The notes beneath the pieces were generated by a model. It was given only the letters and a program-made list of their open reading frames with translations. It did not search any database and was not told the origin of the DNA. This document shows positions 51,343 through 55,171 of a DNA stretch of 64,000 nt, piece after piece. Numbering within the stretch: the first letter of the stretch is position 1; each line of letters starts with the position of its first letter. The stretch comes from Candidatus Limnocylindria bacterium (GTDB taxonomy: Bacteria > Methylomirabilota > Methylomirabilia > Rokubacteriales > CSP1-6). The position numbers and the translations under genes were made by a program. The DNA is taken from positions 7,093 to 71,092 of the forward strand of contig DATLFG010000105.1 of NCBI GenBank assembly GCA_035524955.1, written 5' to 3'.

Positions 51343-52293
51343 TCACAGCAGGTCCGACGGCTCGACGTCGCGCGCGGCCAGCAGACGCCGCAGGTGCTCG
51401 AGCGCGGTACCCTCGATCTGCCGTACGCGCTCGCGCGTCAGGCCGAGGCGCTGGCCGATGGCCTCGAGCGTCATGGGGTGATCACCCCCCAGCCCGAAGC
51501 GCAGCATCACCACGGTGCGCTCCCGGTCGGGCAGGTCCTGGAGCACACCGGCCAGATCGGCCCGGGCGCGCAGCATGGTGGCCAGCCCGGTGCCCGCCGC
51601 CGCGTTCGGGTCCTCCACCATCTCACCCAGGTTGCCCTTCCCGTCCTCGCCGGTCGGCTTGTCGAGCGAGAGCGGCTGCTGGCGCAGGCTCTCGAGTTGC
51701 TCCAGCTCGCCCGCGGGTCGCTTCATCACCGCGGCCACTTCCTCGAGCGTGGGCGGCCGGCCGAGCTTCTGGGTGAGCACATTGCGCTGCTTCATGTACT
51801 GCGAGAGGAGCAGCTCCACGTGGACCGGCAGCCGGATCGTCCGCGCCTGGTTGGCGAGGGCGCGCACCACCGCCTGGCGGATCCACCAGGTGGCGTAGGT
51901 CGAGAAGCGGGTGCCGCGATCGGGCTGGAACTTGCGGGCCGCGTGCAGGAGCCCGACGTTGCCCTCCTCGATCAGGTCGAGGAGGGAGAGCCCGCGGTGG
52001 AGGTAGCGCCGGGCGATCCGCACCACGAGCCGCAGGTTGGCCTCGACGAGTTGCTTCTGAGCCTCGGCGTCGCCCGCCTGGACGCGGCGGGCCAGGTCCT
52101 GCTCCTCCTCCGGGGTCAGCAGCTTGACCCGGGAGATCTCCTGCAGGTAGAGGGCGATCAGCTCACGGCTACGGTCGCCCGCCTCGGGGGCGTCGGGCTT
52201 CTCGCCGAGCTCGGCGGGGTCCTTGTCCAGCAGGGCCTCGAGGGGCTCGTCGCCGCCCTCGAGCTCGTCGGCCGTCTCGGGCTCCGGGGCCAT
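51343..52293 (-). CDS. RNA polymerase sigma-70 family factor, group 2 (RpoS-like by context)
   Basis: Region 2 is NLRLVVRIARRY...FSTYATWWIRQA. Region 3 is present, and region 4 is LTLEAIGQRLGLTRERVRQIE. At 316 aa it lacks the long SigA N-terminal region. It lies at the end of the surE-pcm-nlpD-like string. Confidence 0.85.
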   Translation of the reverse strand: MAPEPETADELEGGDEPLEALLDKDPAELGEKPDAPEAGDRSRELIALYLQEISRVKLLTPEEEQDLARRVQAGDAEAQKQLVEANLRLVVRIARRYLHRGLSLLDLIEEGNVGLLHAARKFQPDRGTRFSTYATWWIRQAVVRALANQARTIRLPVHVELLLSQYMKQRNVLTQKLGRPPTLEEVAAVMKRPAGELEQLESLRQQPLSLDKPTGEDGKGNLGEMVEDPNAAAGTGLATMLRARADLAGVLQDLPDRERTVVMLRFGLGGDHPMTLEAIGQRLGLTRERVRQIEGTALEHLRRLLAARDVEPSDLL

Positions 52294-52302
52294 GGGAGAC
52301 CT

Positions 52303-53229
52303 TCACTCGTACGGGTGGTGTTCCGAGCTGGACGCGGCCACGTCGCCCTCGAAGACCGGGCTCCGGTCGGAGGGCTCCAGCAGGTGGAGCGGGTTGTACG
52401 CCTTGCCGTCGCGCCGGACCTCGAAGTGCACGTGCGGGCCGCTCGTGTGGCCGCTGCGCCCCACCGTCGCGATGACCTGCCCCGCCTCGACGTCCTCCCC
52501 GGCCTCGACCAGATTCCTCAGGTTATGCGCATAAAGCGTGATGAAGTTGTTGCTATGCTGGATCTTGACCACCTGCCCATAAGACCGGATCCAGCCGCTG
52601 TAGACGACGGTGCCAGGGGCCGCAGCGTAGATCTGCGACCCCATCTCGGCCGTGATGTCGATGCCCGCATGCCACCCCCGAGCGCGCTGGCCGAACGTGG
52701 AGATCACGGGGCCTTCGACGGGCCAGACCAGGCCGATGCGCTCCTCCCCGAAGTCGGGCGTGCCGAGCACCAGGGACGTCAGGATGCGCCGCGGGCCCAC
52801 CCGCTTGATCAGGATGCCGTCGGCATCGGGCTTGGTCCCGGGTGTTTCGCCGGCCGTGCTCAGGACGGGCGCTGGTGGGCAGCCCGGTACGGACAGGCGC
52901 TGGCCGGCGCGGAGCGCATGGGGGGTCACGAGCTGGTTGGCGGCGACCAGGGACGCGCGGGAGACCCGATATCGAACCGCGATCCGACTGATGGATTCGC
53001 CGCTCCGCACACGGTGCGTGCACACGGCCGGTTTCGCCGTCGCTGCGGGCCTGGGGGCGCCGACGACCTTGGAGCCCTTCGGCTTCGCCGGAGCCCCGTG
53101 CGGCGCCGGCACGGTCTGCTGCGAGGTGGCGGGCCGGGTCTTGGCGGGCCTGGTCTGGGCGTCGGACGCCGAAGCGGAGACCGAGAGGACGAGGGCGAGG
53201 AGACCGGCGATGCCGGGCCCGCGGCTCAC
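52303..53229 (-). CDS. LysM + M23 family metallopeptidase (NlpD-like)
   Basis: A signal peptide is followed by a LysM domain (HRVRSGESISRIAVRYRVSRASLVAANQL). The M23 motifs are HAGIDI and SGHTSGPHVHFEV. The GTG start overlaps the acyP TGA (GTGA). Confidence 0.85.
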   Translation of the reverse strand: MSRGPGIAGLLALVLSVSASASDAQTRPAKTRPATSQQTVPAPHGAPAKPKGSKVVGAPRPAATAKPAVCTHRVRSGESISRIAVRYRVSRASLVAANQLVTPHALRAGQRLSVPGCPPAPVLSTAGETPGTKPDADGILIKRVGPRRILTSLVLGTPDFGEERIGLVWPVEGPVISTFGQRARGWHAGIDITAEMGSQIYAAAPGTVVYSGWIRSYGQVVKIQHSNNFITLYAHNLRNLVEAGEDVEAGQVIATVGRSGHTSGPHVHFEVRRDGKAYNPLHLLEPSDRSPVFEGDVAASSSEHHPYE

Positions 53230-53531
53230 GGATCGAACTCCGCGTAGCGAATGGAGAAACCGGTGTAGCGCCCCGTCAGCGGGCGCCACGTCACGGCCAG
53301 GTGATCCACCCGCGCCAGCGGCGGGCCCTTGCCCAGGTCGTGCATGAGCTCCTCGATGAGGTCGCGCCCGCCTTCCACACGCACCCGCACCTTCCCATCC
53401 TTCAGATTCATCACGTATCCGGCGAGGCCCAGCGACGCGGCCTTGCGCTGGACGAAATCGCGGTAGCCGACGCCCTGCACCCGGCCTTCCACGACGATCT
53501 CGGCGGCGCTGCGCAGTCCCGTGAGGCCCAT
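53226..53531 (-). CDS. acyP: acylphosphatase
   Basis: VEGRVQGVGYRDF...GYVMNLKDGKVRVRVEG are the canonical acylphosphatase motifs. Confidence 0.8.
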   Translation of the reverse strand: MGLTGLRSAAEIVVEGRVQGVGYRDFVQRKAASLGLAGYVMNLKDGKVRVRVEGGRDLIEELMHDLGKGPPLARVDHLAVTWRPLTGRYTGFSIRYAEFDP

Positions 53532-53561
53532 CCCGACTCCGACAACGGCTCGAGAAGAAAA

Positions 53562-53638
53562 TGGTCGGGGCGACTGGATTTGAACCAGCGACCTCCTGCT
53601 CCCGAAGCAGGCGCGCTACCAAGCTGCGCTACGCCCCG
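53562..53638 (-). tRNA. tRNA-Pro (anticodon CGG)
   Basis: Acceptor stem CGGGGCG/CGCCCCG, anticodon stem CCTGC/GCAGG with loop TTCGGGA, T-loop TTCAAAT, and an encoded CCA. Confidence 0.9.
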
Positions 53639-53661
53639 TCCCTGACCCTCACACCAGGATC

Positions 53662-54312
53662 TCACGAGTCCCAGGCATACTTGCCGACCAGCTTCACGAA
53701 CATGCACCCGGAATCCCGGGTGACCCGCATCACCCCCTGCACCTTGTCGATCACCTCGAGCGTCTGGTTGGCGACGTCGCCCACCGGCATCACCATCCGC
53801 CCGCCCTCCGCGAGCTGCTCGAACAGGGGCGGCGGCACCGCCGGCCCCCCCGCCGCGACCAGGATGCGATCGAACGGCGCCTCGTCCGGCCAGCCGAGCG
53901 TTCCGTTGCCCGCCCGCACCCAGACGTTGCGGTACCCGAGCCCCTCCAGGGTCTCGCGCGCCCGCGCGGCCAGCCGCGGCAGGCGTTCCATCGTGCACAC
54001 CCGCGCGGCCAGCTCCGCGAGCACCGCGGCCTGGTAACCGCACCCGGTGCCCACCTCCAGCACCTTCTCGCGGCCGCCGAGCCGCAGCAGCTCGGTCATG
54101 CGGCCCACGATGAAGGGCTGCGAGATCGTCTGCCCTTCCCCGATCGGCAGCGGATGATCCCCGTACGCCCGATCGCGCAGCGCTTCGTCCACGAACACGT
54201 GACGCGGCAGCCGCCGCATCACCTCGAGCACCCGCGCGTCGGCGACCCCGCGCCCGACGAGCTGTTCGTCCACCATGCGCTCGCGCTCGCGCGCGAAGCG
54301 CTGCGCGCTCAC
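53662..54312 (-). CDS. pcm: protein-L-isoaspartate O-methyltransferase
   Basis: GEGQTISQPFIVGRMTELL and VLEVGTGCGYQAAVLAEL are PCMT motifs. The GTG start overlaps the surE TGA. Confidence 0.85.
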   Translation of the reverse strand: MSAQRFARERERMVDEQLVGRGVADARVLEVMRRLPRHVFVDEALRDRAYGDHPLPIGEGQTISQPFIVGRMTELLRLGGREKVLEVGTGCGYQAAVLAELAARVCTMERLPRLAARARETLEGLGYRNVWVRAGNGTLGWPDEAPFDRILVAAGGPAVPPPLFEQLAEGGRMVMPVGDVANQTLEVIDKVQGVMRVTRDSGCMFVKLVGKYAWDS

Positions 54313-55082
54313 CGCGTCCGCTTCCTCCCGAGCACGGCGTTCAGGGCGCCTTCCCACTCGCTCATGCGGCCCAGCGCGCCGTGGTGCGTCAGATCCAGGT
54401 GCAGCGGCGTCACCGACGCGAACCCCGCGTGCACCGCCGAGATATCCGAAGCCGTGTCCTCCGCCCATTCCGGGGGACCCGCCCCGATCCAGTAGTACGG
54501 ACGCCCGCGTGGATCCACCTCCTGGATCACCTTCTCGCGGTAGATCCGGTGGCCGAGCCGCGTGAGCCGGATCCCCTTCACCGCGCCCCGCGGCACGTTC
54601 ACGTTCAGCAGCGTCTTGGCGGGCAGCCCCTCCACCAGGAGCCGCGTGGCCACCGCGAGCGCCACCGGTCCCGCGCCGTCGAAGCCCTCCGCGTCCGGGT
54701 CCGCCTGCGATACCGCCAGCGACGGCACCCCGAGCAGCGTGCCCTCCATCGCCGCCGACACCGTGCCCGAGTACGTCACGTCGTCGCCCAGGTTCGTCCC
54801 GTGGTTCACCCCGGAGGCCACCAGCACCGGCGGCTCCGGCAAGAGCCCGAGGACGGCCAGGTTCACGCAGTCCGACGGCGTACCGTTCACCGCGAACTTC
54901 CGCTCCGCGACCCGGTCCACCCGGAGCGGCCGGTGCAGCGTGAGGGCGTGACCCACCGCGCTCTGCTCGCGATCCGGCGCCACCACGTACACCTCGCCGA
55001 GCGCGGCGAGAGCGTCTGCGAGAACCTGGAGCCCGCGCGCGTGGATCCCGTCATCGTTGGTGACGAGAATCACGGGCGCCAT
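54309..55082 (-). CDS. surE: 5'/3'-nucleotidase SurE
   Basis: The N-terminus is MAPVILVTNDDGIHARGL, followed by the GVNHGTNLGDDVTYSGTV motif. Confidence 0.9.
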   Translation of the reverse strand: MAPVILVTNDDGIHARGLQVLADALAALGEVYVVAPDREQSAVGHALTLHRPLRVDRVAERKFAVNGTPSDCVNLAVLGLLPEPPVLVASGVNHGTNLGDDVTYSGTVSAAMEGTLLGVPSLAVSQADPDAEGFDGAGPVALAVATRLLVEGLPAKTLLNVNVPRGAVKGIRLTRLGHRIYREKVIQEVDPRGRPYYWIGAGPPEWAEDTASDISAVHAGFASVTPLHLDLTHHGALGRMSEWEGALNAVLGRKRTR

Positions 55083-55094
55083 GTCGATCGAAAA

Positions 55095-55171
55095 TGGTCG
55101 GGGCGACTGGATTTGAACCAGCGACCCCTTGACCCCCAGTCAAGTGCGCTACCGGGCTGCGCCACGCCCCG
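55095..55171 (-). tRNA. tRNA-Pro (anticodon GGG)
   Basis: Acceptor stem CGGGGCG/CGCCCCG, anticodon stem CTTGA/TCAAG with loop CTGGGGG. The 3' half is identical to the other tRNA-Pro. Confidence 0.9.

Follow-up and report, generated by a model that had tools for sequence, protein, structure and literature searches.

Gene content and conservation of the locus

The window analysed here is a stretch of 64 000 nucleotides (nt) from contig DATLFG010000105.1 of assembly GCA_035524955.1 (Candidatus Limnocylindria bacterium; Methylomirabilota, Rokubacteriales in GTDB). Between positions 55171 and 51343, its minus strand carries a compact string of tRNA and protein-coding genes that begins with tRNA-Pro(GGG) and surE and ends with the gene for a group-2 sigma factor. 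The evidence presented below makes it probable that this locus is the Methylomirabilota (Rokubacteria) version of an ancient RpoS locus, that its sigma factor is the positional orthologue of the deltaproteobacterial-type RpoS, and that the string is expressed as a mixed tRNA-mRNA transcript. The features of the string are as follows (aa, amino acids).

55171..55095, minus strand: tRNA-Pro(GGG), CCA encoded (ARAGORN; Rfam tRNA, 62.2 bits)
55082..54309, minus strand: surE, 5'/3'-nucleotidase, 257 aa (NF001490, 306.7 bits for a cut-off of 233; Pfam SurE)
54312..53662, minus strand: pcm, protein-L-isoaspartate O-methyltransferase, 216 aa, GTG start (NF001453, 238.5 bits for a cut-off of 188)
53638..53562, minus strand: tRNA-Pro(CGG), CCA encoded (ARAGORN; Rfam, 67.2 bits)
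53531..53226, minus strand: acyP, acylphosphatase, 101 aa (Pfam PF00708, 93.3 bits, profile positions 2-85 of 85)
53229..52303, minus strand: LysM-M23 peptidase, 308 aa, GTG start (Pfam LysM and Peptidase_M23)
52293..51343, minus strand: group-2 sigma factor, 316 aa (Pfam sigma-70 regions 1.2, 2, 3 and 4)

The family assignments of these genes are firm. A preliminary description of this DNA gave the order as surE, pcm, tRNA-Pro(CGG), acyP, a LysM-M23 gene and a 316-aa group-2 sigma factor, and the open reading frame (ORF) and tRNA calls, Pfam and NCBIfam agree with it. The upper end of the interval that it described, 55171, is the 5' end of tRNA-Pro(GGG), a second tRNA gene that it left unmentioned. 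Both of the GTGA overlaps that it reported are present in the sequence: 4 nt shared by surE and pcm (read as cgGTGAgcg) and 4 nt shared by acyP and the M23 gene (ccGTGAgcc). Elsewhere the spacing is short: 12 nt from tRNA-Pro(GGG) to the ATG of surE, 23 nt from the pcm stop codon to tRNA-Pro(CGG), 30 nt from tRNA-Pro(CGG) to the ATG of acyP, which has a GGAG motif 6 nt ahead of it, and 9 nt from the M23 stop codon to the sigma gene. AcyP scores below every NCBIfam acylphosphatase equivalog cut-off (best 87.1, for a cut-off of 100). The G+C content of the window is about 70%, and that of the RpoS-type block, at 0.70-0.72, is the same as in its surroundings. An Rfam scan of the interval 48.5-58.5 kilobases (kb) returned three tRNAs only, with no riboswitch or small RNA (sRNA).

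The sigma factor has hundreds of metagenome relatives at 80-99% identity. The named matches, at 85-89% identity, belong to Candidatus Rokuibacteriota or Methylomirabilota, which in the NCBI taxonomy are a candidate phylum outside the Proteobacteria. The earlier placement of this soil bacterium in or near Proteobacteria is therefore taxonomically wrong.

Seven independent Methylomirabilota loci were compared, with sigma identities to the window of 59-89%. Four close ones (L081, L082, L172 and L173; sigma identity 82-89%) have the order der-SPOR-ihfA-merR-surE-pcm-acyP-LysM/M23-sigma. The three more distant ones (L001, L002 and L089; 59-60%) keep surE-pcm-acyP-M23-sigma, the contig of L089 showing part of the string. 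Both tRNA-Pro genes are found at matching positions in L081, L082, L001 and L002, which were scanned for tRNAs; in the incomplete contig L089, likewise scanned, tRNA-Pro(CGG) is present. The two tRNA-Pro genes are paralogues. They form an 86-nt direct repeat (53557..53642 and 55090..55175), 85% identical, with copies 1533 nt apart; the repeat includes 5 nt downstream (TTTTC) and brackets surE-pcm. The preliminary description had treated the absence of the synteny from close relatives, together with a sigma factor branching among non-RpoS sigmas, as decisive against an RpoS assignment; the synteny is kept in relatives.

Upstream of the string, on the minus strand, lie der, a gene for a SPOR-domain protein, an ihfA-like gene and a MerR-family gene. 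The flanking features used in the comparisons below are:

55879..55598, minus strand: ihfA-like gene (NF001401 IHF-alpha, 112.3 for a cut-off of 111)
55579..55208, minus strand: MerR-family gene (Pfam MerR_1)
55211..55183, minus strand: sigma-70-type promoter-like site TTGAGT-17-TACAAT (consensus scan; a prediction)
49239..49315, minus strand: tRNA-Arg(CCT), a downstream synteny anchor common with Desulfuromonadales loci (ARAGORN)

The search for the same neighbourhood beyond the phylum used tblastn of nine window proteins against all fetched sigma loci. Two pattern scans, of genomes and of metagenomes, listed 160 sigma-factor loci, the generic pattern YATWWIRQ being used in the metagenome scan. 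Among the matches listed, the Methylomirabilota loci are L001 and L002 from the genome scan and L089 from the metagenome scan. At least one of surE, pcm and M23 stands beside the sigma gene in 12 of the 160 listed loci, some contigs being too short to hold all three. These 12 are the three Methylomirabilota loci, eight loci of gammaproteobacterial-type RpoS (L029, L049, L065, L071, L155 and L158, with L127 and L129 partial) and one further locus, L110. The remaining 148 listed loci have no surE, pcm or M23 neighbours. The order surE(umpG)-pcm-nlpD-rpoS was checked directly in E. coli K-12, and the preliminary description was right that the window mirrors this enterobacterial order.

The L110 proteins match, at 84-96% identity, proteins that carry the name Desulfuromonadales or Deltaproteobacteria. 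This locus and three others like it (L169, L170 and L171) have the order pheT-ihfA-merR-surE-pcm-VTT/DedA-LysM/M23-sigma (322-326 aa)-phosphoribosyltransferase (Pribosyltran), and in the three of them scanned for tRNAs (L110, L169 and L171) tRNA-Arg(CCT) comes next. The window and the Desulfuromonadales thus share ihfA-merR upstream and tRNA-Arg(CCT) downstream, besides the four genes of E. coli, so that the neighbours in the window match the Desulfuromonadales arrangement more closely than that of E. coli. Pcm of the window is 44% identical to E. coli Pcm and 52% identical to the Desulfuromonadales protein. Between pcm and the M23 gene there is a variable slot, filled by VTT/DedA in Desulfuromonadales and by tRNA-Pro(CGG) and acyP in the window, and empty in E. 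coli. The only group-1/2 sigma factors of Geobacter are rpoD and rpoS (PMC2700814); because of this inventory, and from the names of the protein matches, the Desulfuromonadales sigma factor is very probably the Geobacter-type RpoS (GSU1525), which has been studied by experiment.

A third lineage shares other neighbours. The RpoS-like sigma gene of Nitrospirota (L085 6797..8694) has tRNA-Pro(CGG) 128 nt upstream and a phosphoribosyltransferase gene downstream, and in L169 (6001..7623) the Desulfuromonadales sigma gene is followed by the same phosphoribosyltransferase family and then by tRNA-Arg(CCT). No phosphoribosyltransferase gene was found downstream of the Methylomirabilota sigma genes. 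The overlapping pairs of shared neighbours among the window, Desulfuromonadales and Nitrospirota are as expected from the decay of one old locus, which they suggest.

Other features of the neighbourhood may be recorded here. Within 47292..49315, a large serine recombinase gene is split in two ORFs, 47292..48521 with Resolvase and Recombinase domains and 48570..49280 with a Zn_ribbon_recom domain. The gene stops at the 3' end of tRNA-Arg(CCT), G+C content dips to 0.656-0.662 at 44-48 kb, and the whole looks like a decayed integrative element at this tRNA gene. A PilZ-domain ORF lies at 49355..50137 (plus strand). It is followed at 50438..51265 (plus strand) by a class I S-adenosylmethionine methyltransferase gene that converges on the sigma gene and is kept beside it in L081, L082 and L172. 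The stretch from the methyltransferase gene to tRNA-Arg varies among relatives and includes ATP-grasp TupA-like genes and a histidine phosphatase gene. At 21212..21294 (plus strand) ARAGORN predicts a tRNA-Ala of 83 nt whose anticodon, AGC, is at position 30; both its length and the position of its anticodon are unusual, and the call may be false or may reflect a tRNA-like element.

The sigma factor and the LysM-M23 protein

The sigma factor has the architecture of group 2: Pfam matches Sigma70_r1_2, r2, r3 and r4 within 316 aa, behind an acidic N-terminus of 45 aa. It thus falls in the usual RpoS size range of about 300-350 aa, and has neither a region 1.1 domain nor a large non-conserved insert. 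The best NCBIfam models are those of RpoS (TIGR02394 rpoS_proteo, 313.9 bits; NF004207, 303.6), ahead of the best RpoD model (286.9). Pfam and NCBIfam therefore agree with the earlier group-2 call, and the family nearest to it is RpoS. At several positions it shares with RpoS residues that differ from those of the primary sigma factors: DLIEEGN (DLIQEGN in primary sigmas), RFSTYA (KFSTYA), TIRLP (TIRIP) and GLTRERVRQI. At the C-terminus, its tail LLAARDVEPSDLL is similar to LLLSERDFSLADD of the Desulfuromonadales sigmas and differs from the KLRHPSRS tail of primary sigma factors.

Phylogenetic trees were built by neighbour joining (NJ) from 258-260 core columns, with 233 sequences and then with 327, Desulfuromonadales included. 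The Methylomirabilota sigmas form a clade that is sister to a clade containing the beta- and gammaproteobacterial RpoS (E. coli, Pseudomonas and betaproteobacterial sequences), the Desulfuromonadales sigmas and the Nitrospirota sigmas. Bootstrap support for this sister position is 64% with 233 sequences, without Desulfuromonadales, and 38% for the exact split with 327. The three groups stand together in a clade of at most 60 taxa that excludes primary sigmas in 74 of 100 NJ replicates. The proposed check of the sigma phylogeny thus places the protein beside RpoS, at a support of 64% or 38% only.

In the NJ trees, the Methylomirabilota clade has as its sister a 295-aa sigma factor (P0144/P0275; L087/L088 7001..7888). 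The gene neighbours of this factor are luciferase-like (F420-type), xanthine-dehydrogenase-type and PAS-LuxR genes, with no surE, pcm or M23 among them, and it could represent a paralogue or a separate lineage. In three close relatives, a gene for a 72-aa XRE/HTH_3 protein lies behind the sigma stop codon or overlaps it (L081 7956..8174; L172/L173 5945..6163). It is absent from the window and from L082 and could be a lineage-specific regulator of the sigma factor.

Published criteria for RpoS combine phylogeny with synteny, the latter meaning a position immediately downstream of an nlpD-like gene that is preceded by surE-pcm (Chiang and Schellhorn 2010, as cited in PMC6719511). Residue K173, which reads C at -13, and a C-terminal extension were proposed as further criteria (Hengge 2011, as cited in PMC6719511). 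The window sigma factor has the synteny and the C-terminal extension, its tail RRLLAARDVEPSDLL aligning with E. coli REILQTQGLNIEALFRE and with the Desulfuromonadales tail named above; it agrees weakly with the phylogeny and lacks K173. The sequence evidence for it as a putative RpoS is moderate. The earlier proposal of an RpoS orthologue holds for the position in a shared block and for the top-scoring NCBIfam model; it is less well served by scores below the cut-offs, by NJ support of 38-64% and by a neutral comparison of profile models (see below). Our literature search found no relevant work on RpoS in Rokubacteria or Methylomirabilis.

The protein in the position of nlpD has the domain order of NlpD, with LysM at residues 72-115 and Peptidase_M23 at residues 187-280 (Pfam). 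Its signal peptide has no lipobox: the N-terminus MSRGPGIAGLLALVLSVSASASDAQ contains no cysteine, whereas E. coli NlpD has LAGC and the Desulfuromonadales protein LVAC. Both zinc-binding motifs, HxxxD and HxH, are preserved, as HAGID (residue 187) and HVH (residue 266); in the alignment, their counterparts are degenerate in E. coli NlpD (GNKGID and RLH) and in the Desulfuromonadales protein (YKGIE and RLH). The score on the NlpD model NF008123 is 102.3 for a cut-off of 311, and the best NCBIfam match is ActS, with 122.9 for a cut-off of 375. The missing lipobox, the intact zinc motifs and the low NlpD score led us to reject an identity with NlpD. Of the NlpD-like peptidase of the preliminary description there remain the LysM and M23 domains and the nlpD position. 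Since HAGID and HVH are kept, the protein is probably a secreted endopeptidase, predicted to be active, that occupies the place of nlpD. The other Methylomirabilota M23 copies have the same motifs and a common C-terminal acidic tail.

Predicted expression of the string

A consensus scan of 51000..56800 found a single promoter-like match, TTGAGT-17-TACAAT, while shuffled sequences gave a mean of 0.2. Its -10 box ends 12 nt ahead of tRNA-Pro(GGG), and its -35 box overlaps the stop codon of the MerR gene. The letters TTGA and ACAAT are invariant in five Methylomirabilota loci, those of 60% sigma identity included, and the flanks diverge. The divergent locus L002 has in addition TTGTGC-16-TACAAT upstream of tRNA-Pro(CGG); there is no such site in the lineage of the window. 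The same scan of 51000..56800 found no terminator-like site inside the string, and after the sigma gene no hairpin is better than those of shuffled sequence (z = -0.62). A short T-run follows both tRNA-Pro genes and might cause partial termination.

The gaps of at most 30 nt and the 4-nt overlaps, the lack of a terminator and the lone conserved promoter-like site ahead of tRNA-Pro(GGG) make a mixed tRNA-mRNA transcript the most likely form of expression. A single primary transcript would start at tRNA-Pro(GGG). Processing of the tRNA ends, by RNase P at the 5' side and by RNase Z or E at the 3' side, would then split it into a surE-pcm message and an acyP-M23-sigma message. Translation may be coupled at the GTGA overlaps of surE/pcm and acyP/M23 and across the 9-nt gap between the M23 gene and the sigma gene.

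A check for an internal rpoS promoter in the nlpD-like gene, as had been proposed, revealed neither a conserved nor a consensus site. The sigma-70 consensus scan found no promoter-like site in the acyP-M23 region of the window, and a relaxed scan over six loci found no match conserved in position in this region. The RpoS-type extended -10 motif CTAYRCT occurs at chance frequency, with six matches for 6.8 expected, one of them inside the M23 gene.

As for its role, the sigma factor would be non-essential, as a group-2 sigma, and would most likely direct a stationary-phase or general-stress regulon. We regard as conceivable, though doubtful, a scheme in which a growth-rate-controlled tRNA promoter drives the string, and tRNA excision and read-through set the synthesis of the RpoS-like sigma factor. 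The processing arrangement may be ancestral, because the RpoS-like gene of Nitrospirota also lies directly behind tRNA-Pro(CGG).

Origin of the locus and comparison with known systems

Several observations weigh against the interpretation of the locus as an RpoS locus expressed from a tRNA promoter. The sigma factor misses the RpoS equivalog cut-offs (313.9 bits for 378.7; 303.6 for 394). Its phylogeny is by NJ only, with moderate support (38-64%). In a comparison of profile hidden Markov models (HMMs) with each clade left out in turn, it scored neutrally, 329.6 on the RpoS-like model and 337.6 on that of other sigmas; the mean difference was -10.6 bits for the Methylomirabilota clade, +3 for the left-out Desulfuromonadales and +21 for the left-out Nitrospirota, in a test biased by the fact that the 'other sigmas' helped to train their own model. 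Pairwise comparison with solved chains does not discriminate between RpoS (245 bits) and SigA (251 bits), and tblastn is just as even for E. coli RpoS (215 bits) and RpoD (216 bits). The column of E. coli RpoS K173 is Leu in the window sigma factor (PVHVELLLS). The Nitrospirota sigmas of the RpoS clade have no surE, pcm or M23 neighbours, and the synteny is accordingly not universal. The promoter, the joint transcription and the tRNA processing are all predicted from the nucleotide sequence. Finally, the discriminator of the tRNA promoter is G+C-rich (gcccgatgggt), and the activity of such a promoter should drop in starvation, a poor fit with a stationary-phase sigma factor; this tension would be resolved if either the sigma factor were controlled post-transcriptionally or there were promoters invisible to a consensus scan.

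The first of these points concern the sequence of the sigma factor, and controls bear on them. The RpoS model gives 320.1 for the Desulfuromonadales sigma and 345.6 for that of Nitrospirota, both below the cut-off, whereas betaproteobacterial RpoS passes with 469-487. At the K173 column, Desulfuromonadales have Asp and Nitrospirota Glu, and beta- and gammaproteobacterial RpoS have Lys. Because the Desulfuromonadales and Nitrospirota sigmas also fail and betaproteobacterial RpoS passes, the cut-offs and K173 define the beta/gamma type and not the wider RpoS group.

The same points could be read as signs of an unrelated group-2 sigma factor, for example an independent duplicate of the rpoD of the phylum, that lies beside the LysM-M23 gene by chance, the likeness to the rpoS operon being convergent or coincidental. 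The scores below the cut-offs, the equal pairwise scores to RpoS and SigA/RpoD, the neutral HMM result, the lack of conservation of K173 and the NJ support of just 38-64% would all suit such an origin. Chance would have to explain, against this, a long ordered block, ihfA-merR-surE-pcm-X-LysM/M23-sigma...tRNA-Arg(CCT), present alike in Methylomirabilota and Desulfuromonadales, although none of the 148 listed non-RpoS sigma loci has surE, pcm or M23 neighbours. The RpoS-type signature residues and the C-terminal tail are shared as well, and the Desulfuromonadales sigma, taken as the Geobacter-type RpoS, is equally below the thresholds. We judge this origin quite unlikely. It also seems unlikely that the cluster, though orthologous to the rpoS locus, came to the Methylomirabilota ancestor as a unit by ancient horizontal transfer, with a delta-proteobacterial (Desulfobacterota) donor, and not by vertical descent. 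Such a transfer would account for SurE, Pcm and IHF being closer to Desulfuromonadales (55%, 52% and 53% identity) than to gammaproteobacterial proteins (43-47%, 45-52%), and for the Nitrospirota RpoS-like genes lacking the block. Yet the G+C content of the block is indistinguishable from its surroundings, core genes (der and ihfA) flank it and no mobility genes lie inside, and identities are low throughout (40-55%), which would date any transfer to before the phylum diversified. The mosaic of neighbours fits one old locus: tRNA-Pro(CGG) precedes the Nitrospirota sigma gene, Pribosyltran follows in both Nitrospirota and Desulfuromonadales, and tRNA-Arg(CCT) follows the sigma gene in both Desulfuromonadales and Methylomirabilota, as descent from one old locus would have it.

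The preliminary description saw in tRNA-Pro(CGG) and acyP atypical insertions in the string, and they could have arrived recently, for instance with a mobile element, and interrupted a formerly E. coli-like operon. The E. coli, other gammaproteobacterial-type and Desulfuromonadales loci have neither gene at this place, integration often targets tRNA genes, and there is a decayed recombinase at the nearby tRNA-Arg. We nevertheless hold a recent insertion to be very improbable. Both genes are fixed at the same position in the Methylomirabilota loci seen, down to 59% sigma identity, and acyP overlaps the start of the M23 gene by 4 nt. The repeat search around tRNA-Pro(CGG), which had also been proposed, found no flanking direct or inverted repeats beyond the paralogy with tRNA-Pro(GGG), and there is no integrase among the ORFs inside the string. 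The slot itself is variable, being occupied by VTT/DedA in Desulfuromonadales, and the RpoS-like gene of Nitrospirota also has tRNA-Pro(CGG) just upstream. Because they are kept across the seven loci, without flanking repeats or an integrase, tRNA-Pro(CGG) and acyP are old, fixed members of the string in this phylum.

The descent of the Methylomirabilota string from an ancient RpoS locus, which we prefer, has consequences for the history of this sigma factor. In the usual account (Chiang and Schellhorn 2010, as cited in PMC6599016 and PMC6719511), RpoS is limited to beta-, gamma- and deltaproteobacteria. The same positional locus is now found in a candidate phylum without cultured members whose bacteria are abundant in soil. 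If the orthology is true, the linkage surE-pcm-LysM/M23-sigma predates the split of these phyla and the RpoS locus is older than the Proteobacteria; the Rokubacteria would also gain a candidate general-stress sigma factor, now annotated only as 'sigma-70 family'. K173, the curated HMM cut-offs and a lipoprotein, degenerate NlpD appear to be features of the beta/gamma type and not of the locus as a whole. The understanding of the system in model organisms is unchanged, and the gene content is one of ordinary housekeeping, repair and stress functions; the use of the locus lies in dating the RpoS locus and in annotating Rokubacteria.

Among known systems, the Desulfuromonadales locus resembles that of the window in having ihfA, merR, surE, pcm, a variable slot, a LysM-M23 gene, a group-2 sigma factor of about 320 aa and tRNA-Arg(CCT). 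The sigma factors of both have almost the same RpoS scores, below the threshold (320.1 and, in the window, 313.9), similar C-terminal tails and no Lys at the K173 column. Unlike the window, the Desulfuromonadales loci lack tRNA-Pro genes and acyP, carry a gene for a VTT/DedA membrane protein in the slot, encode an M23 protein that is like NlpD in its lipobox and degenerate zinc motifs, and have a phosphoribosyltransferase gene after the sigma gene. The Nitrospirota sigma (P0172/P0278 cluster) is like that of the window in belonging to the RpoS-containing NJ clade, in scoring below the RpoS cut-off (345.6) and in having tRNA-Pro(CGG) directly upstream. It differs in having no surE, pcm or M23 neighbours, zinc-ribbon protein and rhomboid genes upstream, and Glu at the K173 column.

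The E. coli/gammaproteobacterial cluster has in common with the window the order of the four families, the surE/pcm overlap and a sigma gene directly after the LysM-M23 gene. E. coli RpoS, about 45% identical to the window sigma factor, shares DLIEEGN, RFSTYA, TIRLP, GLTRERVRQI and the C-terminal extension. In contrast with the window, E. coli has a lipoprotein NlpD with a degenerate LytM domain, RpoS with K173, and no tRNA or acyP at this place. In E. coli, most transcription of rpoS starts at a promoter within nlpD and yields a long, regulated leader, whereas in the window the gap between the M23 gene and the sigma gene is 9 nt and no long 5' untranslated region or internal promoter is evident. 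The tRNA-processing logic proposed here is unlike the regulation of E. coli rpoS by an internal promoter and a leader under sRNA control. Mixed tRNA-mRNA operons are known from E. coli, as in the tufB operon thrU-tyrU-glyT-thrT-tufB and in metY-nusA-infB. Like the window, they have tRNAs on the same strand within tens of nucleotides of coding genes and a promoter-like site ahead of the first tRNA; unlike them, the window, where co-transcription is predicted, also has a tRNA between coding genes in the middle of the string.

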